A DNA stretch of 35,152 nt from Acidobacteriota bacterium (GCA_043759095.1 JAYVMG010000617.1:1-35152), one strand, 5' to 3'. Shown: positions 11,544 through 33,923, counted from the first letter of the stretch. Translations and numbers: made by a program. The notes: generated by a model from the sequence alone, not told the origin.

Positions 11544-12523
11544 GAGGGCTTAGGGCTCAGGGCCCAGGGCTCACGGCCGGATCGTCAGCCCTCAGCGTTC
11601 AGCGCTCGGCCCTGCCGGTCCGTCCCCTCCTGAAGTGGGCGGGCGGGAAACGCCAGCTGCTGCCCTACCTGCGGCGCTTTTACCCGCCGGCGTTCAACCG
11701 GTACATCGAACCGTTCTTCGGCAGCGGCGCCGTGTTTTTCGACTTGCATGGCGCCGGCCGGCTGCGCGACTGCGACGTCGTACTGATCGACTCGAACGCC
11801 GATCTGATCGGCTGCTACGAAACCGTGCGGACGCAGCCGGACGCCGTCGCGGACGAACTCGATGCTCTCGCCGTCGCGCACGCCAGCGGCGGGCAGGCGC
11901 ACTACTACGCGGTCCGGGACGAACAGTTCAACCCGATCCGCGATCGCCTCCGCGGCGGCGACGGCCGCATTGCGTATACGCCACAGCTGGCGGCGATGCT
12001 CATCTATCTGAATCGCACCGGGTTCAACGGGCTGTTTCGACTGAACGCGCGAGGCGCGTTCAACGTGCCGGCGGGCCGGTACGATCGGCCGAAGATCGCC
12101 GATCGCGAAAAGCTGGCGCGGGTCGCGGAGGCGTTCTCCGCCGCGCGGCTGGTCTGGGGATCGTTCGAATCAGTGCTCAGCCTCGCGACGCCTGGCGACT
12201 TCGTCTATTTTGATCCGCCGTACGCTCCCCTGAGCCGGACGGCGAATTTCACGTCGTATACGGCGCTGCGCTTCACCGCTGACGATCAACGGCGCCTGCA
12301 GCAGATCGTCATCGCGCTTGCCGGGCGGGGCTGTCATGTGTTGCTCAGTAACTCGACCGCCGACGAAATCGCGGCGCTCTACGATCGCAACGCGGATGCC
12401 CGCGCCGCCGGCCTGCGCGCGCTGCGCGTGCCGGCCCGACGGATGATCAACAGCAACGCGGCGCGCCGCGGGCCGGTCGAAGAATATCTGATCACCAACG
12501 TTGCGGTCGCCACCCGGGGCTGA
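11540..12523 (+). CDS. dam: Dam-family (D12 class) N6-adenine DNA methyltransferase, apparently orphan; start codon uncertain
   Basis: LLKWAGGKRQLLPYL, EPFFGSGAVFFDL (FxGxG), LNRTGFNGLFRLN, FVYFDPPYAP (DPPY). The only canonical in-frame start upstream of the conserved core is GTG 11540, which overlaps the anti-sigma stop as GTGA. That choice adds ~30 aa encoded by the heptamer array. The only later start candidates are CTG at 11612 or 11630. Confidence 0.8.
   Translation: MRGLRAQGPGLTAGSSALSVQRSALPVRPLLKWAGGKRQLLPYLRRFYPPAFNRYIEPFFGSGAVFFDLHGAGRLRDCDVVLIDSNADLIGCYETVRTQPDAVADELDALAVAHASGGQAHYYAVRDEQFNPIRDRLRGGDGRIAYTPQLAAMLIYLNRTGFNGLFRLNARGAFNVPAGRYDRPKIADREKLARVAEAFSAARLVWGSFESVLSLATPGDFVYFDPPYAPLSRTANFTSYTALRFTADDQRRLQQIVIALAGRGCHVLLSNSTADEIAALYDRNADARAAGLRALRVPARRMINSNAARRGPVEEYLITNVAVATRG
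11545..11614 (+). repeat. 10-unit in-register heptanucleotide array (AGGGCTY then AGCSCTC type)
   Basis: Units from 11545 in steps of 7: AGGGCTT AGGGCTC AGGGCCC AGGGCTC ACGGCCG GATCGTC AGCCCTC AGCGTTC AGCGCTC GGCCCTG. The first four units give G3N4G3N4G3N4G3 at 11546-11569. Confidence 0.85.
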
Positions 12524-12539
12524 CGCGCGTCAGCCCCGG
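12514..12539. terminator. 26-bp perfect palindrome; candidate bidirectional terminator between convergent genes
   Basis: CCGGGGCTGACGC|GCGTCAGCCCCGG. The dam TGA (12521-12523) and the stop of the convergent gene (tca 12530-12532) both lie inside the stem. No U-tract is present. Confidence 0.5.
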
Positions 12540-13123
12540 CGCACCAGTTCGACGTCCACAAAGCTCCCGGTATCCGGCCAGACGGCGGCGAGCCCGCGAT
12601 CGAGCGCCGTCGCCGCGCCCCACAACGCACGCGGCAGCAGCGTCCACGACTTCAGGCCGCCCGACAACCAGTAGCGTAGCGGCGTGTGTGGCTGATACCG
12701 TGCGATCGACAACCCGGGAAAGCGGCGCTCGAACTCCGCGCGATCGCGCCTGAAGACGATCCAGCAGAGCGCGCCGTTGGCGCCTGTCAACGGTCCCGTC
12801 GACTCGAACGTCCAGCCCGCGTCAGGTTGATACGGTTCGTGATGAATGAATCGCAGCACCGGCCCGCCGATCACGCCCGGATGCTCGTCGACGATCAGCA
12901 CGCGCCCACCGGGACGCAGCACGCGCTCGCACTCCGCAAGCATCGCGCCCACGTCGGGGATGTGATGAAAGACGTTGAACATCAGGATCGCGCGCAACGC
13001 GCCGGTCGCGAACGGCAGGCGCCGCGCATCCAGCACGAGATCAAGTCCCGCATACGGAAGGATGTCCGATGCGATCAGATCAGGAAGCAACTGACAGCGG
13101 CCGGGGTCGTCAAGTTCGCTCAT
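12530..13123 (-). CDS. class I SAM methyltransferase-like protein, N-terminally truncated with a degenerate motif I
   Basis: LVLDARRLPFATGALRAILMFNVFHHIPD..CERVLRPGGRVLIVDEHP..GPLTGANGALCWIVFRRDR. Start ATG 13123 sits in an ATGA overlap (tcat 13120-13123). Where relatives have LELGxGxG, this protein begins MSELDDPGR. Confidence 0.7.
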   Translation of the reverse strand: MSELDDPGRCQLLPDLIASDILPYAGLDLVLDARRLPFATGALRAILMFNVFHHIPDVGAMLAECERVLRPGGRVLIVDEHPGVIGGPVLRFIHHEPYQPDAGWTFESTGPLTGANGALCWIVFRRDRAEFERRFPGLSIARYQPHTPLRYWLSGGLKSWTLLPRALWGAATALDRGLAAVWPDTGSFVDVELVRRG

Positions 13124-13890
13124 CGCGAGACGCCGAGCCGCACGCGGAAGAACCCGATCGCCGTCATCTTGAGCAACATCCACCCGTGACGGAAGCAGCT
13201 GATGTTGGTTTCGCCGTAGGTGCGCGCGAGATAGCGGATCGGGAGATCGACGACACCCAACCCGAGAATCGCGGCGGGAAACAGCATCTCGAAATCGCCG
13301 AACGGATCGAAGTCGCCGAAATCGCGACGCCACGCCGTGAAGCGCGCGTAGTCGTGGCGCCCGAACAGTTTCGCGCCGCAGAGTGCGTCGCCGAGCCGCA
13401 CCGACAACACGCTGCTGAGCGCCTTCGCAAAGAGCACATTACCCAGCCGGTTGAGCGGCCGCATCGCGCCCGACTCGGTGCCGTACACCAGTCGGCTGCC
13501 GTTGACGAAATCCCCGAGGCCGTCGCGATACGCATTGTAGAAACGCGGCAGCGCCGACGGCGGAACGGTCAGGTCCGCATCGAGAATCGTGACGACGTCG
13601 CCGGTGGCCTGGCTGAAGCCGAGCCGCACGGCGTCACCTTTGCCCTTGCCGGTCTGCCGAAACGCGGCAATCTTGAACTCCACCGCGTAGCGCGGGATCA
13701 GGCGTTGAATCTCGTCCCACGTTCCGTCGTGTGAATGCCCCTCGATGAACACGACCTCCAGGCCAGGCAATTCGTCCTTTACCGCGCGCAGACCTTCGAG
13801 CGCACCCTCGATGTTGCCGCGCTCGTTGCACGTCGGCGCGAGGACGCTGATCGACGGCTGCTCCGTCGGCGTGATCTCTGGCGCCAGCAC
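13120..13890 (-). CDS. family 2 glycosyltransferase (Dpm1/polyprenol-phosphate glycosyltransferase-like)
   Basis: ISVLAPTCNERGNIEG..VVFIEGHSHDGT..GKGDAVRLGF..VVTILDADLT. Start assigned to GTG 13890 (MLAPEITPTEQPSISVLAP), 18 nt after the upstream stop. The ORF-track start 14118 overlaps the upstream gene by 210 nt. Confidence 0.8.
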   Translation of the reverse strand: MLAPEITPTEQPSISVLAPTCNERGNIEGALEGLRAVKDELPGLEVVFIEGHSHDGTWDEIQRLIPRYAVEFKIAAFRQTGKGKGDAVRLGFSQATGDVVTILDADLTVPPSALPRFYNAYRDGLGDFVNGSRLVYGTESGAMRPLNRLGNVLFAKALSSVLSVRLGDALCGAKLFGRHDYARFTAWRRDFGDFDPFGDFEMLFPAAILGLGVVDLPIRYLARTYGETNISCFRHGWMLLKMTAIGFFRVRLGVSR

Positions 13891-13907
13891 AACGATGGCG
13901 GCGAAGT

Positions 13908-14471
13908 TCAGATGGGCAGCAACGGGACGGCGGGAAGAATCTTGTTCAGGACGGACCCGAGGCCGAGCAGGCGCAGCGGTGAGTAGATCGCCTCGCGAAC
14001 CCGGACGACACGGAATCTGGCGAGACGCGCGACGTTCCCGAGGTCGGTAAACGTCACGAACGTCGTTGGGGCTTCGGGGCCACGCAATCCAAACCGCGAC
14101 GCCAGCTGATAGATCCACGCGTAGTACGGCTTAGAGAGAATCGCCACGATGCGTGATCCGCGGCCAAGAGACCCGCGCAAGGTGGTGAGCAATCCCTGGA
14201 TGTCGGACGAGTGGTTGAAATTACCGTTGAGGAGAACGGCATCGCGTCGCCCCGCCGCACGCGAGTCGGGCAGCGCGGCGCCGGGCGCCACGGCCATCTT
14301 CTCGGGACATGACACGAGGTTGAACAGCAGCCCATCGTCGTTCGGCAGGCGCGCGTACTGAATCAGGCGATCGTAGTACCGCGTCAGCGACGAGATCTCG
14401 GCTGCCAGCTGACAGTTCGCGCAGACGCGCCACCGCTTCCGGTCAGGCGCGTCAATCGCCGCGGCACGCAT
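13908..14471 (-). CDS. hypothetical protein (weak methyltransferase-like features)
   Basis: ORF with high third-position GC. ATG 14471 overlaps the GT-C stop by 20 nt. Segment AVLLNGNFNHSSDIQGLL..GSRIVAI is vaguely Rossmann-like. No firm motif was recognised. Confidence 0.45.
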   Translation of the reverse strand: MRAAAIDAPDRKRWRVCANCQLAAEISSLTRYYDRLIQYARLPNDDGLLFNLVSCPEKMAVAPGAALPDSRAAGRRDAVLLNGNFNHSSDIQGLLTTLRGSLGRGSRIVAILSKPYYAWIYQLASRFGLRGPEAPTTFVTFTDLGNVARLARFRVVRVREAIYSPLRLLGLGSVLNKILPAVPLLPI

Positions 14472-15960
14472 ACCCCAACAACAGCGCACCCTCGTTGCCC
14501 GGGACGTCTCTGACGTACGTCGGGACGTCCCGCTGATAGACGCGGGTACAGCCGTGGCGCATCATCCCCGGCACGAATGCCTCGTCGAAGACCCGGCTGC
14601 GCAATACCGCATCGAGGTGATAGAAAAACGTCGTTCCTGATCCGGCGTCACGATCGATGGTGCGGGTGACGTACTCGGACGTCATCGGCTGGCCGAAGCT
14701 GCCCCACGCCGGCCCCTCGTTCGCCAGCATCCGGATATCGGGATCATGACGCACCTCGTACCGCAGCCGCTGCGTGTCCCACCCGATGTCGAAGAACACA
14801 AGCTTCGTCCCCGGCATTCGCCGTAACTCGGCGGCCACCGTCCGCCACGGGCCTGTCGGCGCGTCGTGCGGCGCGCGCACAAACGAGAAGGTTGCCGCCA
14901 CCAGGATGCCTGCGGCGCACGCCGTCACGGCGACCTGCGCCCAACGCCCACCCGCGAGGCAGCGATCGGCGCCAAGACCCACCAGCATGCAGAGCGCCGG
15001 AAACGCCGGCGCCAGATACCGAAACGAGAATCCGGTGCGCCCGGCGAGAAAACCGTGCGCTCCCCCAATCTGAACCACGATGACAGTCGCCAGCACGGCG
15101 ATGAACGGGTCGCGATCGCGGACACCACGCCATACACCAACCACCGCCAGGCCGACCGCCAGGTAGCCGAGCCCGGCCGGCATCGCCAGCAGGTAGACCG
15201 GGCCGGAGATGTAGTAGCGCGGATTGACCATCGCCGCGAGCGTCACCCAAATCGCGGGACGTTCGAGCGCCGACTGAAACTGCAGGACGCCGATCGCGAG
15301 GGGGAGAGACAGCACCGCGACGACCGCCAGCGAGAGCAACAGCGGCGCGTGTCGATGGATCGCTCGTCGAGGGTCTGCCGTGACGGCCGTGAACGCGACT
15401 GCCGCCAGTGCGTAGATGCCCTGCGCGAGCAGGGTCCAGACTGCAGGCGGCTGCGAGTATGCCAGTAAGACGGTCGCCACGACGTACCAGACATACGGCA
15501 TGACGCCGTGCCGCGGGCCGCTGATCAGCGACGCGAACGACAAGCAGGACCACAGTGAGAACCAGACCCCGAGCGAGTACGGACGAAGCGTGGGCGTCAG
15601 ATACGAACTGAATCCCGAGAGGAGCAGGACCGCCGTCGCGACGATGCGCGCCAGCGGCGTCAGGCGTGGCGTGCGCAGCAGGGTGATGGCCGCGCAGACC
15701 ATGAACAGCAGCGGCAACAACCGCATGACCGGCTCCGTGTCTCCCAATCGAAGCCACTCGTGGAGCGCGATAAAGAAGAGCGGGGGGTGGCCCTGCGAGG
15801 TCACCGACAGGGTCAGGACATCGCGCAGCGGAGGGACCGCCATGAAGAACGACATCGCTTCGTCCAGAGTGAGTTCGCCGACCGTGAAGTGTGAGAAGGT
15901 GATCAGGAGATACGAGGCAACGACGCAGGTCGCCGAAATGAGCCAGGCCGGTCGGTTCAC
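14452..15960 (-). CDS. GT-C fold integral-membrane glycosyltransferase (ArnT/PMT, GT39/GT83-like)
   Basis: 502 aa with more than 10 hydrophobic segments. The first-loop acidic motif LTLDEAMSFF is followed by GHPPLFFIALHEWLRLG..MRLLPLLF, as in ArnT/PMT-like enzymes. Confidence 0.75.
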   Translation of the reverse strand: MNRPAWLISATCVVASYLLITFSHFTVGELTLDEAMSFFMAVPPLRDVLTLSVTSQGHPPLFFIALHEWLRLGDTEPVMRLLPLLFMVCAAITLLRTPRLTPLARIVATAVLLLSGFSSYLTPTLRPYSLGVWFSLWSCLSFASLISGPRHGVMPYVWYVVATVLLAYSQPPAVWTLLAQGIYALAAVAFTAVTADPRRAIHRHAPLLLSLAVVAVLSLPLAIGVLQFQSALERPAIWVTLAAMVNPRYYISGPVYLLAMPAGLGYLAVGLAVVGVWRGVRDRDPFIAVLATVIVVQIGGAHGFLAGRTGFSFRYLAPAFPALCMLVGLGADRCLAGGRWAQVAVTACAAGILVAATFSFVRAPHDAPTGPWRTVAAELRRMPGTKLVFFDIGWDTQRLRYEVRHDPDIRMLANEGPAWGSFGQPMTSEYVTRTIDRDAGSGTTFFYHLDAVLRSRVFDEAFVPGMMRHGCTRVYQRDVPTYVRDVPGNEGALLLGYACRGD

Positions 15961-16014
15961 GTTCCCCTCGGTGGCGGCGATCTTAACACGCGTCCGGCGA
16001 CCGACGTGTTACGC

Positions 16015-16524
16015 TCACGTTCGTACCGCGAAAGTGGCGGAATTGGCAGACGCGCCGGACTTAGGATCCGGTAGCCGAAAGGCTATGGGGGTTCGACTCC
16101 CCCCTTTCGCACCATGGCTCCATCCACCGATCGAGCGTGCAGGCGGCGAGGACGAACAGACACGGCTCGATGGGGACGCTGTCCCGCGGCGCTGCGAAGA
16201 GCAACGTGTGGACCACGTGACCGCAAGAGGAATCGCCCACACGTACGCGACCCGTGGTGACCACGGGATCACGCCAAGCGACAACAGCGCCGCCGCCAGG
16301 AGCAACGCGCGGAGGCTGATGACCGCTCGCGCGGTCGGCGACCGCGGCGGCGTGTCCGGCCCGCGGGGTTCGTCGCCGCCGGGCCACGGCCCCCATAATT
16401 CCCACAACACCTTGAACCATTGGACGAGAAAACCGGCGGGCGCTCCGGACAGCACGAAGCGCACATAATTCAATTGCTGCGGCCAGACGGCCGCGCGGGG
16501 CGACCGCAGACGCGCGGCGGTCAT
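16015..16524 (-). CDS. hypothetical membrane protein fragment; 3' part unreliable and probably part of a decayed GT-C-like gene
   Basis: ATG 16524 sits in an ATGA overlap with the preceding ORF. The first ~100 codons have high GC3 and hydrophobic stretches (ISLRALLLAAALLSLGVIPW). Beyond that the coding signal moves to another frame. Both frames run antisense into tRNA-Leu. Confidence 0.3.
   Translation of the reverse strand: MTAARLRSPRAAVWPQQLNYVRFVLSGAPAGFLVQWFKVLWELWGPWPGGDEPRGPDTPPRSPTARAVISLRALLLAAALLSLGVIPWSPRVAYVWAIPLAVTWSTRCSSQRRGTASPSSRVCSSSPPARSIGGWSHGAKGGSRTPIAFRLPDPKSGASANSATFAVRT
16028..16114 (+). tRNA. tRNA-Leu (anticodon UAG), class II with long variable arm, CCA encoded
   Basis: Acceptor stem GCGAAAG/CTTTCGC is a perfect 7 bp. 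Anticodon stem CCGGA/TCCGG with loop CTTAGGA. Variable arm TAGCCGAAAGGCTATG. T arm GGGGG-TTCGACT-CCCCC. Discriminator A followed by CCA. Confidence 0.93.
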
Positions 16525-16823
16525 GGCGACCAGGGCGACGGTCGCTGTGTCGAGAGCAGGATGTTCAGCGCAAGCAGCGCCTGTGGCGCATGTGCAGGAG
16601 CGAGCCGCGCCACAGCCGCTATGATGAGAGGGTGCCCAGGCGGGTCGGTGGTGACGATGCCGCTCCCCGAGATGCCGGTGACTTCGGCCAGATAATGGTA
16701 CCTATCGGTCTCGTACGAGGGCAGGGCGAGGCTGCAGACAGCCACGCGCAGCCGGGCCGCCGCGACGATGACGACCGCGAGCAGAACACGCGGGTCGCGA
16801 TCCGATCGCGGCTGATGACGCAC
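16521..16823 (-). CDS. hypothetical membrane protein resembling a GT-C N-terminus (possibly a pseudogene fragment)
   Basis: GTG 16823: (M)RHQPRSDRDPRVLLAVVIVAAARL..LPSYETDRYHYLAEV..DPPGHPLIIAAVARLAP..ALLALNILL. This parallels LDEA..GHPPLFFIALHEWL..LLPLLF of the intact GT-C at 14452-15960. GC3 is high. Confidence 0.35.
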   Translation of the reverse strand: MRHQPRSDRDPRVLLAVVIVAAARLRVAVCSLALPSYETDRYHYLAEVTGISGSGIVTTDPPGHPLIIAAVARLAPAHAPQALLALNILLSTQRPSPWSP

Positions 16824-16844
16824 ACGGCTATTATAAGGATCGGC

Positions 16845-18119: not shown

Positions 18120-18165
18120 GACACCCCGCTCACGAATCCCCCGACCCATCAGCAGCTACTCCCTT

Positions 18166-18777: not shown

Positions 18778-18778
18778 C

Positions 18779-18813
18779 AGCTCAAAGGGCTTAGGGCGAA
18801 GGGCTTAGGGCTT
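18779..18813 (+). repeat. 5-unit heptanucleotide array filling the clpP-clpX spacer
   Basis: AGCTCAA AGGGCTT AGGGCGA AGGGCTT AGGGCTT, then AAGC and the clpX ATG at 18818. G3N4G3N4G3N4G3 spans 18787-18810. Confidence 0.85.
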
Positions 18814-18817
18814 AAGC

Positions 18818-20065
18818 ATGGTGAAAAAGGCCGGGGAAACCGAGGTTCTGCGCTGCTCCTTCTGCAACAAGGACCAGAACGACGTCCGGAAGCTCATCGC
18901 GGGCCCGACGGTGTTCATCTGCGACGAGTGCGTCGAGGTCTGCAACGACATCATCGCGGACGATAACCGGTTCGAAAACCGTGGCACTCGTTCGTCGCTG
19001 CCCACGCCGCAGGAAATCAAGAAATTTCTTGACGAGTACGTCATCGGCCAGGAGCGCACCAAGAAGAAGCTGGCCGTCGCGGTCTACAACCACTACAAGC
19101 GCATCGAAATCCAGAAGCAGCCGCGCAGCCGCAACGACATCGAGCTGACCAAGAGCAACATCCTGCTCATCGGCCCCACCGGCACCGGCAAGACACTGCT
19201 CGCCCAGACCCTCGCCAAGCTGCTGTCCGTCCCCTTCACGATCGTCGACGCGACGACGCTGACGGAAGCCGGGTATGTCGGCGAGGACGTCGAGAACATC
19301 ATTCTGAAGCTGCTGCAGGCCGCCGGTGGCGACATCGAGAAGTGCCAGCAGGGGATCATCTACATCGACGAGGTCGACAAGATCTGCCGCAAGGACGAGA
19401 ACCCGTCGATCACGCGCGACGTGTCGGGTGAAGGCGTCCAGCAGGCGCTGCTGAAGATTCTCGAGGGCACGGTCGCCAACGTCCCGCCACAGGGCGGACG
19501 CAAGCATCCGCACCAGGAGTTCTTCCAGGTCGACACCAGCAACATCCTGTTTGTCTGCGGCGGCGCGTTCGTCGGCCTCGACAAACAGATCGACCGCCGC
19601 ATCGGCAAGAAGACGCTCGGCTTCAAGGCGGACATCAAGTCGCTGCGCGCGCGCGACATCGGCACGACGCTCGAGGCGCTCGAGCCGCAGGATCTGATCA
19701 AGTACGGCCTGATCCCCGAGTTCGTCGGTCGCCTGCCGGTCATCGGCACGCTGCACGAGCTCGACAAGCCGGCGCTCGTCCAGATCCTCACGCAACCGCG
19801 CAACGCCATCACGCGTCAGTACATGAAACTGTTCGAGTACGAAAACGTCAAGCTCCGCTTCACCGACGATGCGCTTGATGCGATCGCCGAGGCGGCGCTC
19901 GACCGCAAGATCGGCGCACGCGGATTGCGGATGATCATCGAAGAGCTGATGCTCGACCTGATGTATCAGGTGCCGAATCAGAAGAAGGTCCGCGAGGTCA
20001 CGATCACGCGCGAAGTCGTGCTCGCGAAGGACAAACCCATCACGTTGATTGAGAAAGCCGGTTAA
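18818..20065 (+). CDS. clpX: ATP-dependent Clp protease ATP-binding subunit ClpX
   Basis: Zinc-binding N-terminus [15 protein letters not shown]. Walker [26 protein letters not shown]. 415 aa. Confidence 0.95.
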
Positions 20066-20067
20066 CG

Positions 20068-22460
<2,393 letters not shown>

Positions 22461-22464
<4 letters not shown>

Positions 22465-23141: not shown

Positions 23142-24394
23142 ATCTGTCGACGCTCAAGGACATGAGCGTCGGTGCGCTGACCAAGATCGCGAAGGGACTC
23201 GACGTCCCGGGCGCGACCGGCATGCGCAAGCAGGAGCTGATTTTCGAGATCCTGAAGGCGCGCGCTGAAAAGAGCGGGCTGATTTTCTCCGAAGGCGTAC
23301 TGGAGTGCCTGCCGGACGGCTTCGGGTTCCTGCGGGCCCCCGACTACAACTACCTCCCCGGCCCCGACGACATCTACGTGTCGCCGTCGCAGATTCGCAA
23401 GTTCGATCTTCACACCGGCGACACCGTCTCCGGCCAGATCCGGCCGCCGAAGGATGGCGAGCGGTACTTCGCCCTGATCAAAGTGGAAGCCGTCAACTTC
23501 GAGCCGCCGGAACGGGCGCGCGAGAAGGTGTTCTTCGAGAACCTGACCCCGCTCTATCCGCAGTCGAAGATCCTGCTCGAGACCGACGCCGAGAACCTCT
23601 CCGCCCGCGTGCTCGACATGATGGTGCCGATCGGCAAGGGCCAGCGCGGCCTCATTGTCGCGCCGCCGCGCACCGGCAAGACGATGCTGCTGCAGAACAT
23701 CGCCAACAGCATCACGCACAACCATCCCGAGGTGTACCTGATCGTGTTGCTCATCGACGAGCGGCCGGAAGAAGTCACCGACATGCAGCGCTCGGTGCGC
23801 GGCGAGGTGATCTCGTCGACGTTCGACGAGCCCGCGCAGCGCCACGTGCAGGTCGCTGAGATGGTGATCGAGAAAGCCAAGCGCCTCGTTGAGCACAAGA
23901 AGGACGTCGTGATCCTGCTCGACTCGATCACGCGCCTGGCGCGGGCCTACAACACGATCGTGCCGCCGTCGGGCAAGGTCCTGTCAGGCGGCGTCGACAG
24001 CAACGCGCTGCAGCGACCGAAGCGCTTCTTCGGCGCGGCGCGCAACATCGAGGAGGGCGGCTCGCTGACGATCATCTCGACCGCGCTCGTCGACACCGGC
24101 TCGCGGATGGACGAAGTGATCTTCGAGGAGTTCAAGGGCACGGGCAACCTCGAGATCCATCTCGATCGCAAGCTGACGGATCGCCGCGTGTTCCCGTCGA
24201 TCGACATCCAGAAAAGCGGCACACGCAAAGAAGAACTGCTGATCCCGAAGGAAGACCTCAGCCGCGTGTGGGTGCTGCGGAAAGTGTTGACCCCACTGTC
24301 GCCCGTCGAAGCGATGGAACTGCTGCTGTCGCGGATGGCGAAGACGAAGACGAACCAGGACTTCCTGGCGTCGATGAGCAGCGGCAAGTCGTAA
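23039..24394 (+). CDS. rho: transcription termination factor Rho with a P/A/Q-rich N-terminal extension
   Basis: [37 protein letters not shown] aligns with the E. coli Rho N-terminus. GFGFLR and [15 protein letters not shown] are present. The only canonical start upstream of LSTLKD is GTG 23039. Confidence 0.9.
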
Positions 24395-24469
24395 AAGTCA
24401 AAACGGAAAACCGAAAAGCTAAAACTCGGACTTTTGGCTTTTCAGTCTTAGCTTTTCACTTTCTACCTG
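24393..24469 (+). repeat. mirror-arranged heptanucleotide array downstream of rho (AAAANNN x5, then NNNCTTT-type x5); includes a terminator-like hairpin
   Basis: In-register units AAAAGTC AAAACGG AAAACCG AAAAGCT AAAACTC | GGACTTT TGGCTTT TCAGTCT TAGCTTT TCACTTT CTACCTG. GAAAAGCTAAAA (24413-24424) pairs with TTTTGGCTTTTC (24432-24443), giving 12 bp with one G-U pair and a 7-nt loop. Confidence 0.8.
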
Positions 24470-25510: not shown

Positions 25511-25515
25511 GCGTC

Positions 25516-25524
25516 TGATATAAT
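25516..25524 (+). promoter_or_regulatory. candidate extended -10 promoter element (TGaTATAAT) for rpmE
   Basis: TGATATAAT at 25516-25524, 33 nt upstream of the rpmE GTG. No convincing -35 was seen. Confidence 0.4.
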
Positions 25525-25556
25525 GATTGTTTCCCGGAGAGACCAAGGAGCACGTT

Positions 25557-25829: not shown

Positions 25830-27165
25830 GCAGGGAGGGGAGTGCGAGTCTCTCCCCTTCCATCTTCCGCTCGATGCGCGACAGCCGATGTCGCACCGAC
25901 TCGGTCCACGCACCTCCCGCTCCACTCTCCAGACTCAGCAAAGCAAACGCTTTCGCCGCGGCCAGATCGCGCCGGCGGTGCTCGTGATGAATGGCCAACG
26001 CTTCGGTCGCCTCGCGCGCGATCGGCGCCGGGCAGCCGCGGGTTTCCATCACCTCGCTCCAGCACGACGCGGCTTCGTCATGACGCCTGGCGCGGCGGCA
26101 GGTCAACGCCAGCGCGCGCAGCGCATCGATGCGGATCGGATCGTATGCGCCGCGCGGCGATCGGCAGCGCTCCAGCGCGCGCCGGTAGGCGGCGGTGGCG
26201 CGATCCTCGAACCCACTGCGCGCGTAGACATGGCCGAGCGCCAGCGCTTCTCGCGGGTCAATGACCGCGTCAGGTCCGCTCCGGGTCATGTGCAGCAGCC
26301 GCGCGGTGAGCGCCGCCAGAGTCAGCAGGTCGAGACGGTTGTGCTCGAGGACCGCTTCGAGCGGGCGCGCGTCGCCGCTGCGCACGAACTGAAAATATCG
26401 AGCGGGAATCTCGAAGCCCGGCACATCCCCCACGCGTCGCACGCCGAAGAGCTGCCGTTCGAGCGCCTGCAGCGAGCAGCTGTTCTCGCGCCCCTCTGAT
26501 TGTGGCGCAGGACTTTGAGTCCTGCGATCGCGCGTCTTCCAGAAGCGCCGCGCCGGATGCAGCACGTCGATGTGCGGCACGGCGCCGCCGTTCCATGGCA
26601 GGCGGTGGTATAGAAATCGGCTCTCCAGCAACGGCGCGTCGAATGACTTACCGTTGAAGCTGACGAGCGCCCCCGCGTGCGCCAGTTCACCCGCGACCGT
26701 TTCGAGCAGCGGCCGCTCGTCGGCGTGCTTCGCCAGCAGAAACTGGCGAGTCGTGAACGATCCGTCGGCGTCGAACCAGGCGCAGCCCACGAGAAACGCC
26801 AACGTGCCGGCGCCACCGCTCAAACCGGTCGTTTCGAGATCGAAAAACACGAACGGCGGACGCGCAGGCGCGCCTCCACTACTGCCGGTGAACATCGGCG
26901 CCTCACCGGACGACTGCGCCAGCTGCGACGCCAGCTCGCCGATCCGCTCGCGTCCGTGCTGCGCCGACGGCTCCCAGCGCCGATCGACCACGAAGCAGCC
27001 GCCGCGCCACTCGCCACCCAGCGCGGCGCTGAGGTCGGGTAGGACAGATGGGGCAGGTAGGTCGGGTGCGTCGGGTAGGCCTGGTAGATCAGGTGTGGCG
27101 CACGGTTTTACCCGTGCGTTTGCTGGCGACACAATCCCGCGGATACGATCGGCGAACGCGCTCAA
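25819..27165 (-). CDS. mrfB: MrfB/YprB-like DEDDh (RNase H fold) exonuclease with C-terminal TPR-like region
   Basis: [23 protein letters not shown] (compare B. subtilis YprB FFFDTETTGLGGGAGNTIFLLG). [12 protein letters not shown] and [12 protein letters not shown] complete the DEDDh motifs. N-terminal [16 protein letters not shown] also matches the YprB pattern. Start inferred at TTG 27165, overlapping the helicase TGA as TTGA. The ORF-track extension to 27510 lies inside the helicase gene. The next in-frame ATG (26895) would delete the conserved N-terminus. Confidence 0.8.
27038..27100 (-). repeat. 7-unit 9-nt periodic repeat inside mrfB-like, encoding a (D/G/V)LP tripeptide-repeat linker
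   Basis: Plus strand: GGTAGGACA GATGGGGCA GGTAGGTCG GGTGCGTCG GGTAGGCCT GGTAGATCA GGTGTGGCG. Minus-strand translation: [21 protein letters not shown]. Confidence 0.75.
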
Positions 27166-29567
27166 AACGGGACAACCTCCTCGTTCGACGAGGACTCCGT
27201 CGCGCCGATCTCCGCCGGCGGAACGTCGAGGAGCAGGTCGAGGATCCTGAGCGCCGCGCTTTTTGCGAGCGGCCCCGTGTTCCCCACCGGGCCCACGCAA
27301 CCCGGGCACCCGTTTTCGCACGGGCACTCGGCGATCAGCTTGTGCGTGCTCGTCAACAACTCGCGGTGCAGCTCGTAGAGCGGCGCGCTGAAGCCGATGC
27401 CGCCGGGATAGTTGTCGTAGACGAAAATCTTCTGAGGGCTCGCCGCCGCGCCCTGGCCCCCATCGGCCTCGCCACTGTCGATCGAGATGCCGATGTCGTG
27501 CCCGTCGCACATCAGCAGCAGCTGCGCGACCTGCTTCAGCGCGAAGCCCAGTCCGACCACGCCGTCGCGGCGATCGTCTGACGCGTACGGCAGCACGCCC
27601 ATCACACTAGCTGGAATCGTCAGCCAGTACGCCGTCGTGTGCATCTGCTGCTCCGGTAGATCCAGTTCGCCCGAGCCGACGTTCTCGTTCGTGTAGAACT
27701 TGATCTTTTTGAAGCCGACCACGCGCGACACGACGTGCACTTCGCCGTGGGATCTTCGTGGCGCAACGCTTTGAGCGCTGCGATCGTCAGCGAAGGTGTC
27801 GATTGGCGTCACTTTCGTGTACGTGATCGCGGTCGTGTAATAGTCGCAATCGATCGCGCGCACGAACGCCTTGCGCCCCTCGACATCCAGCCGCTCCACC
27901 TGATACAACGTCCCCTCGACGATGTAGATGGCTTTCGGATGAAGCGTGCCTGGCCCGCTGGTGAAATCGGTTTCGCCGATGACGCGCGACTCCTGTGTGA
28001 TGTCGACGATCACGAAGTTGTCCGACGACACCGATCGCAGACTGACGGCGTCTGCCGGGTACGACTCGTTGGTCCACGTCCACGGCGACGCCTCGTCCGC
28101 GCGGTGCACCAGCCCCTGCTCGGACAGGATGCCGAGGATCTCCTGCACGTTCGGCCGGCCGAACGTTTCCGCAGAGGCGAAGGGCAGCTCGAACGCCGCG
28201 CACTTGATGTGATCGACGAGGATGTGCAGGTTGTCCGGGTCGATGAGCGCGCGCTCCGGTGACGCGTCGAAGAAGTACGACGGGTTGCGGACCACGAACT
28301 GGTCGAGCGGCGCGCTGCTGGCCACCATCACCGCCGCGGATCGGCCACTGCGCCGCCCTGCGCGGCCCGCGCGCTGCCACGTGGACGCAATCGTCCCCGG
28401 GTAACCGGCCATCACCGACACGTCGAGCGCACCGATGTCGATGCCGAGTTCCAGCGCGTTGGTCGAGACGACGGCGCGCACCGCGCCGTCCCTCAATCCC
28501 TTCTCTATTTCGCGACGCCGCAGCGGCAGATATCCACCCCGGTACCCTCGAATTTTTTCAGGACCGCCGGGTATCCCCTCGAAATCGTCCTTCAGATACG
28601 TCGTCAGGATTTCGGTGGAGAGGCGGCTCTGCGCGAAGACGATCACCTGCAGGTTGCGCTTGAGAAACTCGGACGCGACGCGGCGCGTTTCCGCCAGGTA
28701 CGAGCGGCGGATGCCGAGCTGGTGATTCACGACGGGCGGGTTCACGAAGACGAAGAATTTCTCGCCGCGCGGCGCACCGTTCCTGTCCACGAGTTCGAAC
28801 GGCTGCTCGGTGAGGCGTTCCGCCAACTCGCGCGGATTGGCAATCGTCGCCGACGAACAGAGGAAAACCGGATTGGATCCGTAATGCCGGCAGATCCGGC
28901 GCAGGCGCCGCAGGACGTTGCACAGGTGGCTGCCGAACACGCCGCGGTACGCGTGCAGTTCGTCGATGATCACGTAGCGCAGGTTCTCGAACAGCTTGGC
29001 CCATCGCGGATGGTGCGGCAGGATGCCCGAGTGCACCATGTCGGGATTGCTGAGGACGAGGTGCGCGCGCGAGCGAATCGTGCGCCGCGCATCCTGCGGC
29101 GTGTCGCCGTCGTAGGTGAACACGCCGATCCCCTGCGGCTCTAACGCCTCGCACATCGCCTGCAACTCCGCGAGCTGATCCTGCGCGAGCGCCTTGGTCG
29201 GAAACAGATACAGCGCGCGGCTCGATGGATCCTGGAGGATCGCGTTCAGCACCGGCGCGTTGTAGCAGAGTGTCTTGCCCGACGCGGTCGGCGTGATCAC
29301 CACCGTGTGCCGTCCGGCCAGCGCGTGCTCGATCGCTTCCGCCTGATGCGTGTAGAGCTGCTCGACGCCGCGCGAAACGAGCGCAGCCTTCAGCCGTGGA
29401 TCGAGCGCATCGGGAAACGGTGCGAGTTGGGCGGCGACCGCGGGAAGGCGCCGAACCGCGGTGACGTGAAGGTCGGGTGTGTCGGGACGATCGACGTCGC
29501 GGCCGCCGATGCGGTCCAGCGCCGCATCCAGCGCTCCGTCGCTGTGACTTCGTGTGGCGGGGAGCAT
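27162..29567 (-). CDS. mrfA: MrfA/YprA-like DEAD/DEAH-box helicase with C-terminal DUF1998 (four-Cys zinc domain)
   Basis: TPTASGKT, VIIDELHAYRG, QRAGRAGRR. C-terminal YDNYPGGIGFS..CPCENGCPGCV. Start set to ATG 29567. The ORF-track GTG 29633 would sit 3 nt from the divergent permease ATG. Confidence 0.88.
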   Translation of the reverse strand: MLPATRSHSDGALDAALDRIGGRDVDRPDTPDLHVTAVRRLPAVAAQLAPFPDALDPRLKAALVSRGVEQLYTHQAEAIEHALAGRHTVVITPTASGKTLCYNAPVLNAILQDPSSRALYLFPTKALAQDQLAELQAMCEALEPQGIGVFTYDGDTPQDARRTIRSRAHLVLSNPDMVHSGILPHHPRWAKLFENLRYVIIDELHAYRGVFGSHLCNVLRRLRRICRHYGSNPVFLCSSATIANPRELAERLTEQPFELVDRNGAPRGEKFFVFVNPPVVNHQLGIRRSYLAETRRVASEFLKRNLQVIVFAQSRLSTEILTTYLKDDFEGIPGGPEKIRGYRGGYLPLRRREIEKGLRDGAVRAVVSTNALELGIDIGALDVSVMAGYPGTIASTWQRAGRAGRRSGRSAAVMVASSAPLDQFVVRNPSYFFDASPERALIDPDNLHILVDHIKCAAFELPFASAETFGRPNVQEILGILSEQGLVHRADEASPWTWTNESYPADAVSLRSVSSDNFVIVDITQESRVIGETDFTSGPGTLHPKAIYIVEGTLYQVERLDVEGRKAFVRAIDCDYYTTAITYTKVTPIDTFADDRSAQSVAPRRSHGEVHVVSRVVGFKKIKFYTNENVGSGELDLPEQQMHTTAYWLTIPASVMGVLPYASDDRRDGVVGLGFALKQVAQLLLMCDGHDIGISIDSGEADGGQGAAASPQKIFVYDNYPGGIGFSAPLYELHRELLTSTHKLIAECPCENGCPGCVGPVGNTGPLAKSAALRILDLLLDVPPAEIGATESSSNEEVVPF

Positions 29568-29636
29568 GGCGGAGCATCGTACCAAGGAGGCGAACAAATG
29601 GCAAAGGGATCGTTGTGTTAGTCTTCCGCCCACCTC

Positions 29637-30983
29637 ATGAGCACACTAGGCGCTCCGGCGGAACGTCTCCCGAGAACGCTCGGGTTGTGGAGTTCTGTCG
29701 CGCTGGTCATCGGGATCACGATCGGATCCGGCATCTTCCGCTCCCCCGCCGGGATCGCGCAGAAAGTGCCCAGCCCGACGCTGATGATCGCGCTCTGGGT
29801 CGTCGGCGGCTTGATCACGCTGTGCGGCGCGCTGTCGCTGGCCGAACTCGCGGCCGCGCTGCCTGAAACCGGCGGCTTCTACGCGTACCTGCGCGAAGGC
29901 TGGGGGCGTCAGTGGGCGTTCTGCTTCGGCTGGTCGGAGCTCGTCTTGATTCGCGCCTCGGCGCTCGGCGGAATCGCGGTCGTGTTCGGTGAGTATTTTC
30001 TCCGCAGCGTGGGCGTCGATCCGGTCGAACACTACATCGCGGCGCGCGCCCTGTCTGCCGCCGCCATCGCCTTTGCCGCCTGCGCCAACATTGTCGGCGC
30101 CAATGTCGGGGCCGCGATCGTGGGCGTCTCGACGTTCGCCAAATTTTCGGCTCTGGTAGTTCTGGTGGGCGCCTCGTTTCTGCTCGGCGGTGCGCACGGC
30201 GCCAGCGTCTCGCACCTGACGGCGGCAGCACCAGGGCCGATCGGCACTGGAGCGATGGGCCTCGCGCTCGTCAGCGTGCTGTGGGCGTACGACGGCTGGG
30301 GCGACCTGTCGTTCGCGGCCGGCGAGGTGAAGGATCCGCAACGGAACCTGCCCCGGGCCATCATCCTCGGTACGCTGGCGCTGATCGCCATCTATGTCCT
30401 GACCAACGTCGCCTATCTCTACGTCATCCCGATTACGCGGATTGCCAACCCGGCCACGCCGTTGGTGGCGGCGGACACGATGATGGCGTTGTTCGGGCGG
30501 ACCGGCGTCGTGCTGGTCTCGGTGTTCGTGATGATTTCTTCGTTCAGCTCGCTGAACGGCAGCATGCTCGCGTCGCCACGCGTGTTCTTCGCCATGGCCG
30601 ATGATGGGATGTTCTTCGAGTCGATCGCGAGGGTGCACCCGCGTTTCAAGACGCCGTACATCGCGATTATCCTGGCGGCCGTGCTCGGCATGGCGCTCGT
30701 GATGAGCCGAAGTTTCGAGGCGTTGACGGAAACCTTCGTCCTCGCGATCTGGCCGTTCTACGCGCTCGGCATCGCGGCGATCTACCGCCTCCGCAAGCAG
30801 CGGCCCGACATGCCGCGCCCCTACAAGGTCATTGGCTATCCGGTGGTGCCAGCGATCTTCATCGTTTCGGTGGCCGCGTTCGTCGTGAACGCGCTCATCC
30901 ACGAGCCGGTGCCGACCATCATCACCTTCGCGTTGATCCTCGCCGGCCTGCCCGTGTATCACTTCGCGTTCGCGCGGCGCTGA
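29637..30983 (+). CDS. APC-superfamily amino acid permease
   Basis: 448 aa with ~12 hydrophobic segments. LPRTLGLWSSVALVIGITIGSGIFRSP. Confidence 0.88.
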   Translation: MSTLGAPAERLPRTLGLWSSVALVIGITIGSGIFRSPAGIAQKVPSPTLMIALWVVGGLITLCGALSLAELAAALPETGGFYAYLREGWGRQWAFCFGWSELVLIRASALGGIAVVFGEYFLRSVGVDPVEHYIAARALSAAAIAFAACANIVGANVGAAIVGVSTFAKFSALVVLVGASFLLGGAHGASVSHLTAAAPGPIGTGAMGLALVSVLWAYDGWGDLSFAAGEVKDPQRNLPRAIILGTLALIAIYVLTNVAYLYVIPITRIANPATPLVAADTMMALFGRTGVVLVSVFVMISSFSSLNGSMLASPRVFFAMADDGMFFESIARVHPRFKTPYIAIILAAVLGMALVMSRSFEALTETFVLAIWPFYALGIAAIYRLRKQRPDMPRPYKVIGYPVVPAIFIVSVAAFVVNALIHEPVPTIITFALILAGLPVYHFAFARR

Positions 30984-31315
30984 TCTTTTTTCAATCTTTC
31001 CGGTTTTTTTTCTTGATCCCCAGCGCGGTACTGTTACTCTTTTTTCTCGCGCGGGCTTGTCGCCGGTATGTTCCTGCTGAGGAGTTCCGAAGATGGATGC
31101 ACGCGAGCCGCGACTGCGGCGCCGAGGGTTCTTCCTGCACTCGTCCGAAGGCGGCGAACCGGATACCGGCGAACACGAGAACCCCGAAGGGTTCATCGTT
31201 CGCGTGTGCTTCCCGGGAAACCCGGTCCCACGCAAGATGGTCAGCGCCCGCGGTCTGTCGGGAGGCGGCCGATCGCACCGCACCGACGCGGACGACATCG
31301 ACGTCCTGCCGGCGA

Positions 31316-32101
31316 TTAGATCAGGGAGCGTGACTGGCAGCCGTCAACGGTCACACTTGCCCCGCTGATCCAGCTCGCGCGACCCGACACCAGGAACGCG
31401 ACGACCGCCCCGACTTCTTCGGGACGGCCAAACCGCCCGAACGGCAGTTCCCGCCGCACGAACTCCGCCATCCCGTCCGGATCGTCCTGGACGCGTCGAT
31501 CCCACGACCCTCCAGGAAAACGAATCGACCCCGGCGCCACGCTGTTGACGCGGATGTTGTCGCGCGCCAGTTGCTGCGCCATCGCCTTGGCGAGGCTGAT
31601 CTCGGCCGCCTTGACGGCGTTGTAGGTCATGCGGCCGCCTGATTCGCGGCCCCAGATCGAGGCAATCATCACGATCGCGCCGCCGCCGCGCTTCCGCATG
31701 AGCGGCACGGCCAGTCTCGACGCCCGCACCGCCGGAAAGAGCGTCTGATCGAACGACTCCTGCCACTCGGCGTCGCTGGTATCGACGATCCCGGCGCCCT
31801 TGGCCAGGCCGATGTTGTTGACGAGGATGTCGAGTCCGCCGAAGGTCTCTACGGTCCGGGTCACAACGGCGGCCACGCCATCGGCCGTCGCGAGATCCGC
31901 AGCCACGGCAAGCACGCGCGACGGACCATTCGCGCCCGCCAGCGCCGTCAGCTCGGCGGCGGCTTCCTTCAGCGTCGCCTCACCTCGCGCGCAGATCGTG
32001 ACCCTGCAGCCTTCTTCGACCAGCGCGCGCGCAGTGGCCAGGCCCAGTCCTTTGCTCGACCCCGTCACGATCGCCACCTTGTCGTTGAGTCCTAAATCCA
32101 T
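31316..32101 (-). CDS. short-chain dehydrogenase/reductase (FabG-like)
   Basis: KVAIVTGSSKGLGLATA (TGxxxGxG), NNIG, catalytic YNAVKAA (YxxxK). Confidence 0.9.
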   Translation of the reverse strand: MDLGLNDKVAIVTGSSKGLGLATARALVEEGCRVTICARGEATLKEAAAELTALAGANGPSRVLAVAADLATADGVAAVVTRTVETFGGLDILVNNIGLAKGAGIVDTSDAEWQESFDQTLFPAVRASRLAVPLMRKRGGGAIVMIASIWGRESGGRMTYNAVKAAEISLAKAMAQQLARDNIRVNSVAPGSIRFPGGSWDRRVQDDPDGMAEFVRRELPFGRFGRPEEVGAVVAFLVSGRASWISGASVTVDGCQSRSLI

Positions 32102-32150
32102 CGGTCTCTCTGCCCCACCTGACCAACCCGCCTCACCCGACCGACCACCG

Positions 32151-32987
32151 TCATCGGCCCCCGCGGCCTGTCAGGTCGTTCAGCGTCCAGTCGAACGTCG
32201 AATAGGTGACCTGAAACGTGTTCTTCCCGATGAATTCCTTTTCCGTCGCCAGCAGTTTCGGCTGAACGAACGCGAGCGCGGCGCGCTCGATGGGGCTGCG
32301 CGCAGCAAACGCCGCGGGCGCCTGGTCGGCATACGCCGCCGAAAATTCCTTTTCGCGCCACGAGAAGATCGCGCTGAGGCTCACCTTGCCGTTCTCGCGA
32401 TCGATCGCGAGGCACTGCCTTCGGTTGACGCACTCCGCCGCCACATCGGCGAGCTGCTCCTCGATCCGCGACGACACGAACGCCTCGCTGCGGAGCCGAC
32501 CGCTGCCGGCCGCGCCGCGCCCGATCGCAAAATACACCCGTGGATCGTGAAAACCAGCCAGCACGGTCGTCTCGATCTGATCGAGGGTCATCGTGCGCCC
32601 GGCGACGCGATGCGGCAGACGCTCGAACGCGCCGGAAATCTGCCGGATGCTCTTCGCGGGATACTCGGTCGCGCGCCCATGAATCGGATAGTGATCGACA
32701 ATCGTCCGGAGCACCAGCGCGTTGTACGCGTTCAGCCAGAACGCCATCTGCTCGTCGCGCGGAAGTTTGTCCACCGACACCGTGGCCAGCATGTTGGCAT
32801 AGCCGTCGAGCCGCGCATGCTCGGATTTCAGCGCGCGGTAGTAGACGTCGCCGTTGCGGACGTAGAGATCGAGCAGCTGATCGAACGTCTTGCTGCGCGC
32901 GACCTCGGATGATTCCTGCGCCGCCGGCGCCGCGACGATGCAGCACGCGAGCACGACAACCAAGGAACGTAAGGAAGGCAAAGACAT
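32151..32987 (-). CDS. secreted DUF547-domain protein
   Basis: ATG 32987 gives the signal peptide MSLPSLRSLVVVLACCIVAAPAAQ. DUF547-type core MAFWLNAYNALVLRTIV..DPRVYFAI. Confidence 0.8.
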   Translation of the reverse strand: MSLPSLRSLVVVLACCIVAAPAAQESSEVARSKTFDQLLDLYVRNGDVYYRALKSEHARLDGYANMLATVSVDKLPRDEQMAFWLNAYNALVLRTIVDHYPIHGRATEYPAKSIRQISGAFERLPHRVAGRTMTLDQIETTVLAGFHDPRVYFAIGRGAAGSGRLRSEAFVSSRIEEQLADVAAECVNRRQCLAIDRENGKVSLSAIFSWREKEFSAAYADQAPAAFAARSPIERAALAFVQPKLLATEKEFIGKNTFQVTYSTFDWTLNDLTGRGGR

Positions 32988-32994
32988 CGTTCGA

Positions 32995-33795
32995 CTATAC
33001 CCGACTGCCAAGGAAGGCCGCGAGAGCTGCATTGAACAGCTCGGGCTGCTCGAGGTTGCTCAGGTGTCCTGCCTGCGGAATGCGCACGAGTTGGGAACCG
33101 GCAATGCCCTGATGCATCTCTTCGGCAGCAGCAGGCGGCGTCAGCGTGTCCTCGTCGCCGACGACGATCAGCGTCGGGACATGAATCGTGTTCAGGAGCG
33201 GTGTTGAATCGGGTCGCGTCATCAACGCGCGCAAACCGCCGCTGATCGCTTCGGCCGAGCTGTCGAGCATCAACGACCGCACCTGCTCCACCACCGCCGG
33301 CCGGGTCGTCCGGGCCGTCTCGCCCAACACATTCGGGATCATCGCATCGGCGACGGCTGACGGCCCCTTCTCCCGCACGATCTGAAGCATGCGCGTGCGC
33401 CCGGCAATGCCTTCCGGCGTATCCGCCTGCGAGCGCGTGTCGGCGAGGATCAGTCCCTGAACGTAGCGCGCCGCGTAGCGCAACATCGCGAACGCGACGT
33501 AGCCGCCCATCGACAGACCGCCGACGACCGCCAGTTTGATATGCAGGGCATCGAGGAGATCGATCACATCGCCAGCGTAGTCGTCGACAGACGCGGTGGA
33601 CGGATCGCCCGCGCCGCCGTCGTAGCCGCGCAGCTGCGGCGCGATCACATGCCAGCCGGTTTGTGCGAGCGTAAGCTGGCCTTCCCACATGCGCGCGTTC
33701 AGGGGGAACGCGTGCAACAGCACGAGCGTGCCGCGCGGGCGGTCAGTGGAGGGCGGAAGAGCTTCGAGGTAGCGCAGGCGTCCGATGTTGGGCAT
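32995..33795 (-). CDS. alpha/beta-fold hydrolase
   Basis: LVLLHAFPLNARMW, nucleophile elbow GGLSMGGYVAF, C-terminal GHLSNLEQPE. Confidence 0.88.
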   Translation of the reverse strand: MPNIGRLRYLEALPPSTDRPRGTLVLLHAFPLNARMWEGQLTLAQTGWHVIAPQLRGYDGGAGDPSTASVDDYAGDVIDLLDALHIKLAVVGGLSMGGYVAFAMLRYAARYVQGLILADTRSQADTPEGIAGRTRMLQIVREKGPSAVADAMIPNVLGETARTTRPAVVEQVRSLMLDSSAEAISGGLRALMTRPDSTPLLNTIHVPTLIVVGDEDTLTPPAAAEEMHQGIAGSQLVRIPQAGHLSNLEQPELFNAALAAFLGSRV

Positions 33796-33804
33796 CGCAC
33801 TATT

Positions 33805-33923
33805 GTGAACTGAGAACTGAGAACTGAGAACTCAGAACTGAGAAATCGGAGGCACTCTGCACCCTGCACTCTGCACCCTGCACCCTGCACCCTGCACCGT
33901 ACAAGATGCACCCTGCACGGTGT
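33805..33923 (-). repeat. 17-unit in-register heptanucleotide array filling the symporter-hydrolase spacer (plus strand GAGAACT x6, then ACCCTGC-type x10)
   Basis: From 33805 in steps of 7: GTGAACT GAGAACT GAGAACT GAGAACT CAGAACT GAGAAAT CGGAGGC ACTCTGC ACCCTGC ACTCTGC ACCCTGC ACCCTGC ACCCTGC ACCGTAC AAGATGC ACCCTGC ACGGTGT. The sense (minus) strand reads GCAGGGT repeats followed by AGTTCTC repeats. Confidence 0.88.

Follow-up and report, generated by a model that had tools for sequence, protein, structure and literature searches.

Stop-codon-proximal heptanucleotide repeat arrays in Vicinamibacterales: a motif-diverse population with frequent hairpin form

A 35,152-nt stretch of DNA from an Acidobacteriota bacterium (GCA_043759095.1, JAYVMG010000617.1:1-35152), referred to as the window, carries arrays of tandem 7-nt units at four gene junctions. 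The window belongs to a metagenome contig of 75 kb, and the metagenome genomes nearest to it place the source lineage in the Vicinamibacterales (Acidobacteriota subdivision 6). According to Pfam, the flanking genes encode a D12 Dam methylase (array 1), ClpP and ClpX (array 2), Rho and an aldo-keto reductase (AKR; array 3) and, on the minus strand, an SDF symporter and an alpha-beta hydrolase (array 4). These assignments agree with the gene names given in an earlier note on this DNA, except that the "anti-sigma" label of the 159-aa open reading frame (ORF) upstream of dam is only plausible. The zf-HC2 match of this ORF (E = 0.065) falls short of the threshold, and the ORF is preceded by a gene for a sigma factor of the extracytoplasmic function type.

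The partition into heptamers was verified base by base in the four spacers and yielded 10, 5, 11 and 17 units, respectively. Tandem Repeats Finder reported period-7 arrays at 11545-11577, 18786-18814, 24400-24425, 33807-33844 and 33852-33918. A sliding test (21 nt at a time, at least 15 matches at lag 7) detected six period-7 segments compared to 0.65 in local shuffles, and all six lay inside the four spacers. Periods 4, 5, 8, 10 and 11 were at background in this test of the window. Independent assemblies, from other samples and among NCBI metagenome genomes, contain the same arrays with identical unit numbers; the arrays are therefore not assembly artefacts. Thus, the arrays are confirmed as non-random and real, as the earlier note had maintained. 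Chance or artefact, for which no supporting point was found, is refuted by the shuffle controls and the independent assemblies and can practically be dismissed. A CRISPR array was likewise rejected, in line with the earlier note: the units are 7 nt long and contiguous, not repeats of 24-48 nt with unique spacers.

All four arrays adjoin the stop codon of the upstream gene, with gaps of 1 nt, 8 nt and ~4 nt for arrays 1, 2 and 4, and array 3 overlaps the stop (Table 1). Arrays 1 and 3 are inverted pairs. Both the pairing and the stop-codon abutment had been overlooked by the earlier note. The paired arrays of the window fold weakly (z = -0.8 and -1.3 for arrays 1 and 3), and the hairpin of array 1 is decayed. 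Array 2 holds a higher-order block of 14 nt with 100% identity (Tandem Repeats Finder), which shows tandem duplication. The five motif families counted originally reduce to four, as AGCGCTC represents the degenerate inverted arm of AGGGCTN, and the T-rich units in array 3 represent that of AAAANNN. A single register had also been described. It is informative within one motif only, for example in array 4, which is back in phase after two degenerate units. Across different motifs a shared register is partly trivial because any two period-7 arrays fit one frame, and it says little where the motifs are unrelated. In the genome of the window, the motif AGGGCTN is present at two loci and AGTTCTC in two consecutive spacers.

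Table 1. Coordinates of the heptamer arrays, their parts and the tRNA gene in the window.
Feature	Position	Strand	Units and remarks
Array 1, whole	11545-11614	+	ten units
Array 1, 5' arm	11545..11572	+	AGGGCTT AGGGCTC AGGGCCC AGGGCTC; begins 1 nt past TGA of the 159-aa ORF
Array 1, centre	11573..11586	+	degenerate units ACGGCCG GATCGTC; loop of degenerate hairpin
Array 1, 3' arm	11587..11614	+	AGCCCTC AGCGTTC AGCGCTC GGCCCTG; degenerate reverse complement of 5' arm
Array 2	18786..18813	+	AGGGCTT AGGGCGA AGGGCTT AGGGCTT; direct repeats only; 8 nt past clpP TAA, 4 nt ahead of clpX ATG
Array 3, whole	24393-24469	+	five AAAANNN units, then five NNNCTTT units
Array 3, 5' arm	24393..24427	+	AAAAGTC AAAACGG AAAACCG AAAAGCT AAAACTC; unit 1 overlaps rho TAA
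Array 3, 3' arm	24428..24462	+	GGACTTT TGGCTTT TCAGTCT TAGCTTT TCACTTT; complements 5' arm
Array 4, whole	33805-33923	-	seventeen units, two runs; sense (minus) strand: (GCAGGGT)n then (AGTTCTC)n
Array 4a	33854..33916	-	(GCAGGGT) x 9; two degenerate units, phase kept beyond; begins ~4 nt past symporter TGA (33923-33925)
Array 4b	33805..33846	-	(AGTTCTC) x about 6; stops ~10 nt short of hydrolase ATG
tRNA-Leu (anticodon TAG)	16028-16114		upstream of tig-clpP-clpX-lon cluster

A fifth heptamer spacer of 182 nt lies just past window position 35152, between a DinB_2 gene and the symporter gene (L087:1462-1643; L-numbers designate the loci compared). It consists nearly entirely of heptamers, namely (TCAAGTC) x about 9, (TGAAATC) x about 5 and (AGTTCTN) x about 4, and the last of these motifs is that of array 4 on the opposite side of the symporter gene. 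The sole strong non-heptamer tandem repeat of the window is a 9-nt repeat, CGCGCCGAG x 3.6, within coding sequence (502-533). A search of the window with Rfam at the gathering threshold gave no family match except the tRNA-Leu.

The occurrence of such arrays was determined in 80 species-level relatives, covering 1.44 Mb around clpX (about 20 kb per genome). Genes were mapped with a home-made ORF picker based on codon usage, which matches the recorded gene calls for L001. Start codons are approximate in this map, which makes a distance measured to a start codon less reliable than one measured to a stop codon. In total, 198 period-7 arrays were found, compared to 34 arrays of period 8 and 6-10 of periods 4, 5, 10 and 11. 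Most of the period-7 arrays (173 of 198) are intergenic, although intergenic DNA makes up 15% of the sequence, and a count restricted to intergenic DNA gave 165 arrays versus 0.7 after shuffling. The intergenic enrichment for which the earlier note had proposed a check is thereby borne out. Merging of neighbouring arrays resulted in 143 elements. The closer clades have 9-17 elements per 100 kb, compared to 3.4 in the most distant loci, whose GC content is similar, and array abundance is therefore a lineage trait rather than an effect of composition. The motifs are highly diverse: 119 distinct canonical heptamers occur in the 143 elements, and up to nine elements with several motifs lie within 21 kb. 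Only compositional tendencies are shared among the motifs (AGCC and CTGA are ~4-fold enriched), and variation within an array is concentrated at one or two unit positions. Octamer arrays with the same inverted-pair architecture and positions were observed at L010:11253-11355, L011:11249-11365, L028:7819-7893 and 13764-13843, and L025:18947-19068; elements of this kind are hence not confined strictly to period 7.

The elements are located close to the end of the upstream gene. The distance from the upstream stop codon to the element is 5 nt in the median and at most 10 nt in 67 of 108 cases, and the next start codon follows at a median of 49 nt. In spacers with 40 nt or more left free, 27 of 65 elements lie in its first tenth on the stop side and seven in the last tenth on the start side. 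Spacers of 80-200 nt are occupied in 20% of co-directional and 22% of convergent gene pairs, but in only 2% of divergent ones. This distribution is that expected of 3'-end structures and matches the observations of Rehm et al. on Xanthomonas and Nostoc.

Many elements can form a hairpin. Two detected arrays with complementary consensus are present in 31 of the 143 elements, and ~30 more elements, in which a single array was detected, have a 14-mer complementary to it no more than 90 nt away. The paired elements have a median span of 105 nt, 39 base pairs and a folding energy of -56 kcal/mol, and the elements of the relatives fold at z = -3.4 to -5.6. Helix lengths peak at 6 and 13, corresponding to 6-bp helices with a single mismatch every 7 nt. 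Intrinsic (Rho-independent) terminators were considered for these hairpins and rejected: a T-rich tail follows the hairpin in none of 25 cases, and the scan for consensus terminators and promoters found nothing at the arrays.

Array 1 has a special position with respect to the reading frames. The GTG at 11540 (GTGA overlap with the TGA of the upstream ORF, 11540..11543, + strand) is the only canonical in-frame start of dam upstream of the KWAGGK motif, and from this codon to the conserved RPLLKWAGGK motif the frame contains no ATG, GTG or TTG. In the recorded gene calls dam begins with this GTG, so the entire array falls within the gene, and Dam as called has an N-terminal extension of 27 residues encoded by array 1. 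In the relatives, Dam starts 3-9 codons ahead of RPLLKW; the dam ATG sometimes lies within the final heptamer unit (L012, L008), and in L002 the GTG start is situated in the hairpin loop. Array 1 is therefore probably part of the dam reading frame and not intergenic, no other canonical start being available. The description of the arrays as non-coding probably fails for array 1. For annotation, this means that heptamer arrays can be open in all frames and can supply or mask start and stop codons, which distorts gene calls, as at the N-terminus of dam.

Strains sharing 99-99.8% identity with the window differ from it by only two single-nucleotide polymorphisms in the arrays, and the number of units was changed in none of the four. 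The polymorphism of unit numbers between strains that the earlier note had proposed to look for was thus absent at this level of identity. Between species, unit numbers differ. A relative with ~94% identity (GCA_025350535.1) has a dam-proximal hairpin of another motif, GGTAATC. The same relative (L090) lacks the rho/AKR element and has 13 nt in its place. The Rho proteins of both genomes are identical, yet the last serine codon and the stop codon read TCG TAA in the window (24386-24394) and AGC TGA in the relative (L090:1543-1552). This difference is located exactly at the start of the heptamer element, which suggests that gain or loss of the element may have gone along with a rewriting of the gene end of rho. 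Among roughly 40 recovered rho 3' junctions, ~10 have unrelated arrays starting from the stop codon, and in each case the nearest relatives are without an array. In the slot after rpmE, the window has an ordinary short GGGGAG...CTCCCC hairpin (25830-25860) that reaches into the 3' end of the convergent gene. Its counterpart in the ~94% relative is a (GAAGTCT)n/(AGACTTC)n hairpin (L090:2926-2992).

The clpX/lon junction carries an array in 22 of 78 genomes. It is 2 nt long in the window (20063-20070; clpX TAA, lon TTG start), L002, L006 and L012. In L007, L008, L010, L011, L013, L025 and L027 it is filled by a ~100-nt hairpin that extends exactly from stop to start and has a different motif each time. 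No Shine-Dalgarno sequence is visible in these heptamer or octamer hairpins of related species. Among congeneric species, orthologous spacers keep their lengths (90/94/91, 110/111 and 126/116/124 nt) while their motifs drift or are replaced. Compensatory changes affect 8 of the 23 pairs of the orthologous clpP/clpX hairpin in one clade. Motifs are shared by different loci of the same genome in 25% of comparisons versus 5.4% between genomes (permutation p < 0.0005), and the value within genomes remains at 23% if the loci are separated by more than 600 nt.

The short tandemly repeated repetitive (STRR) sequences of heterocystous cyanobacteria have the motifs CCCCAGT, TTGGTCA and CAACAGT. Repeats of this intergenic heptanucleotide class remain the best comparison, as the earlier note had proposed; STRR proper was rejected, since the motifs differ and the organism belongs to the Acidobacteriota. 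The arrays resemble STRR (Calothrix/Nostoc) and other Nostoc heptamers in having several families per genome, in lying between co-directional genes and in that they may overlap start codons (bioRxiv 10.1101/2022.06.06.494920). They differ in phylum, GC content (about 65% here) and motifs, and STRR are mostly described as direct repeats. The GGGAATC heptamers of Xanthomonas and GGGGA(C/T)T heptamers of Nostoc are intergenic, often consist of ~four units, are found near the upstream stop codon and are of unknown function (Rehm et al. 2015, PMC4692102). Between divergent genes they are depleted; some of them form inverted pairs with the potential for stem-loops, and they are found at the same gene pairs in related species with variable length and sequence (PMC4692102). 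Stop-codon proximity, depletion between divergent genes, inverted pairs and re-occupation of the same junctions with variable sequence are thus common to both systems, and the genomic context, which the earlier note had taken to be unusual, is not. However, in Xanthomonas and Nostoc one G-rich motif is dominant and prefers the coding strand downstream of ORFs, whereas the Vicinamibacterales have more than 100 motifs without strand bias and the inverted hairpin is common. Motifs of the Nostoc and Xanthomonas type were observed in two relatives, as (GGGGATT)n/(AGGGATT)n in L062 (13633-13688 and the rho 3' junction) and as (GGGGATC)n at L074:8553.

Further points of comparison are provided by other repeat systems. 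In a survey of long simple sequence repeats (SSRs) with units of 5-11 nt, heptanucleotides are the most abundant class, are non-coding and are proposed to originate by slippage, while hairpin pairing, stop-codon abutment and motif turnover are not described there (Mrazek et al. 2007, as summarised in PMC4679880). The heptanucleotide elements of Beggiatoaceae (TAACTGA) and Geobacter occur as sets of 2-6 intergenic heptamers at many loci (PMC4679880, PMC2700814). The enrichment of CTGA-containing units, such as GAACTGA in array 4, is reminiscent of these elements, which however consist of one motif each, for the most part in direct repeats, and lie just upstream of start codons. The repetitive extragenic palindromic (REP) sequences of proteobacteria, with their composite forms BIME (bacterial interspersed mosaic elements) and REPIN (REP doublets forming hairpins), are extragenic imperfect palindromes downstream of genes, many of them within 15-20 nt of the stop codon (PMC12306157). 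REPs within 15 nt of the stop stall terminating ribosomes, and REPs stabilise upstream mRNA (PMC12306157). Palindromes at 3' ends, hairpin units of ~100 nt and genome-specific families are shared with these elements. REPs, in contrast, comprise one or a few conserved sequences in each genome, lack an internal 7-nt periodicity and are linked to REP-associated tyrosine transposases (RAYTs); what is conserved in the Vicinamibacterales elements is periodicity and architecture, not sequence. The kind of repeat and several of its regularities are hence already known. A search of the searchable library for heptamer repeats in Acidobacteriota/Acidobacteria or Vicinamibacter found no report, and no earlier report was found there of the lineage, the motif diversity, the frequency of paired hairpins or the turnover at fixed housekeeping junctions.

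The assignment of the arrays is secure: they are the form that the known class of intergenic heptanucleotide repeats takes in the Vicinamibacterales. They share with the long SSRs the head-to-tail 7-nt units, the excess specific to period 7 and the non-coding bias, with array 1, which is probably in dam, as the exception. They share with the REP type the extragenic imperfect palindromes near gene 3' ends, and few conserved sequence families per genome, as in REP/BIME/REPIN, were not found in the 143 elements. We lean, if only slightly, towards the view that the four arrays belong, as ordinary cases, to a population of 7-nt (less often 8-nt) tandem repeats found across the lineage, which would be REP-like after stop codons. 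The units would multiply by tandem duplication of the slippage type. Slippage-driven growth, which had been suggested by the earlier note, may have contributed: tandem duplication is visible as perfect 14-nt blocks, but the arrays are not fast slippage loci, their unit numbers being the same among the close strains. The two arms appear to evolve in concert, and this indicates either selection for pairing or intrastrand template switching. By analogy to REPs, the transcribed hairpin may act as a stem-loop directly after the stop codon, where it would protect the 3' end of the upstream cistron, attenuate read-through and possibly interfere with the terminating ribosome. The hairpin form is likened to the REP stem-loop because of its 3'-end preference, the avoidance of divergent spacers and the maintained complementarity of the arms, and also because a heptamer hairpin replaces an ordinary hairpin in the same slot and lacks a U-tract. 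Such a function would be neither strand-specific nor motif-specific. Direct-only and decayed arrays would be by-products or remnants, which probably applies to most elements in the window and leaves these with little function.

Several observations weigh against this reading. The number of units does not change at 99% identity. The elements at rho/AKR and clpX/lon are missing in close relatives, which do without them, and any function is therefore dispensable. Folding of the window's own elements is weak (z = -0.8 to -2.2), and a classical hairpin is impossible for two of the four. Tandem duplication alone fails to explain the abutment to the stop codon, since it pushes flanks apart without consuming them, and it also leaves the unrelated motifs at the same junction and the preference for a length of 7 unexplained. 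The REP-like role at the RNA level is, finally, inferred.

As an alternative, the elements may be non-autonomous mobile or actively copied elements, similar to miniature inverted-repeat transposable elements or REPINs, which are propagated by an enzyme acting in trans with a preference for gene 3' ends. This would fit the sharing of motifs between non-homologous loci of one genome, including AGGGCTN and AGTTCTC in the genome of the window. It would also fit the presence, absence or replacement of elements between ~94% relatives with the altered rho end (TCGTAA versus AGCTGA), the unrelated arrays at rho 3' junctions whose nearest relatives lack them, and a characteristic element size of ~105 nt. 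Against this, 119 motifs occur in the 143 elements, and conserved termini, loops or target-site duplications were not found. An all-against-all BLAST search with the 143 elements and their flanks revealed similarity inside the repeats only, and several of the top matches were overlapping extraction windows. No transposase could be linked to the elements within the about 20 kb per genome, where no test for RAYT (Y1) was made, and the constant length of orthologous spacers with changing motifs fits change in place. Three features are left unexplained, namely the 7-nt preference, the seeding at stop codons and the sharing of motifs specific to a genome; they keep a mobile or trans-factor origin alive, although we consider it unlikely. 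A still more speculative possibility, to which we assign a somewhat lower probability, is that the Vicinamibacterales carry a dedicated system for making and maintaining heptad hairpins. It would comprise seeding at stop codons, 4-5 units per arm, genome-specific motif "dialects" and wholesale replacement between sister species, and would be driven by a trans-acting factor that reads the 7-nt periodicity or the structure instead of the sequence. Such a factor may be a hairpin-specific transposase or nuclease, or a cold-shock-domain protein binding one heptamer per monomer.

Two further explanations assign the arrays a role in the expression of the flanking genes. As strand-specific RNA elements (G-quadruplexes, protein platforms or Shine-Dalgarno-like signals), they would tune these genes. 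Heptamers of the GGGNATC type form G-quadruplexes in vitro (PMC4692102), CspB binds with one protein per heptamer (PMC4679880), arrays 2 and 4 end 4-10 nt from the next start codon, and arrays 1 and 2, but no others, each carry on the sense strand four G3 tracts separated by 4-nt loops. However, of the direct-only arrays in co-directional spacers of the relatives, 16 have a G-rich and 18 a C-rich sense strand. A metagenome scan for (AGGGCTT)3 yielded at least 120 matches, of which only the high-GC subset was used; in these contigs five arrays were in sense and four in antisense orientation, 11 lay between convergent and four between divergent genes, and none in coding sequence. The mid-GC matches (41-58%; L108 and others in L094-L213) were discarded as irrelevant, as their contigs are dominated by (TTTAGGG)n-type repeats and are probably eukaryotic telomeric or subtelomeric DNA. 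The G-richness of the sense strand stressed in the earlier note is therefore a small-sample coincidence. In the clpP/clpX array, the fourth G-tract is mutated in strains of 99.3% identity (L004, L005, L006) and two G3 tracts are left in a 93% relative, which argues against a G-quadruplex or a strand-specific RNA platform, both of which the earlier note had listed as candidate roles. Neither conserved G-tracts nor a strand preference relative to the ORF, as in the G-quadruplex heptamers of Rehm et al. (2015), was found. Moreover, most motifs have no G-runs and the elements are closer to the stop than to the start codon, so that we regard strand-specific action as improbable. Even less probable, in our estimate, is that the arrays are phase-variation (contingency) loci, in which changes in unit number would switch genes. 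Methyltransferases subject to phase variation are known as a class; the predicted 5' coding part of the DNA methyltransferase gene dam contains array 1, and a change of 7 nt there would shift the frame. Against this, every available strain at 99-99.8% identity has the same unit numbers, the units are imperfect, which suppresses slippage, and the remaining arrays flank housekeeping genes.

Among the long simple repeats of many bacterial genomes, heptanucleotide repeats rank first in abundance, and neither their function nor the mechanism generating them is established. If it existed, the dedicated heptad-hairpin system would be a mechanistic answer to why bacterial genomes favour heptamer repeats, a question open since the first STRR reports. 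The Vicinamibacterales offer a dense, motif-diverse and comparatively tractable data set, with hundreds of species-level genomes in which the same housekeeping junctions (clpP/clpX/lon, rho) have elements present, absent or rewritten. Any explanation must cover the abutment to stop codons, the paired arms with compensatory change and the sharing of motifs within genomes.

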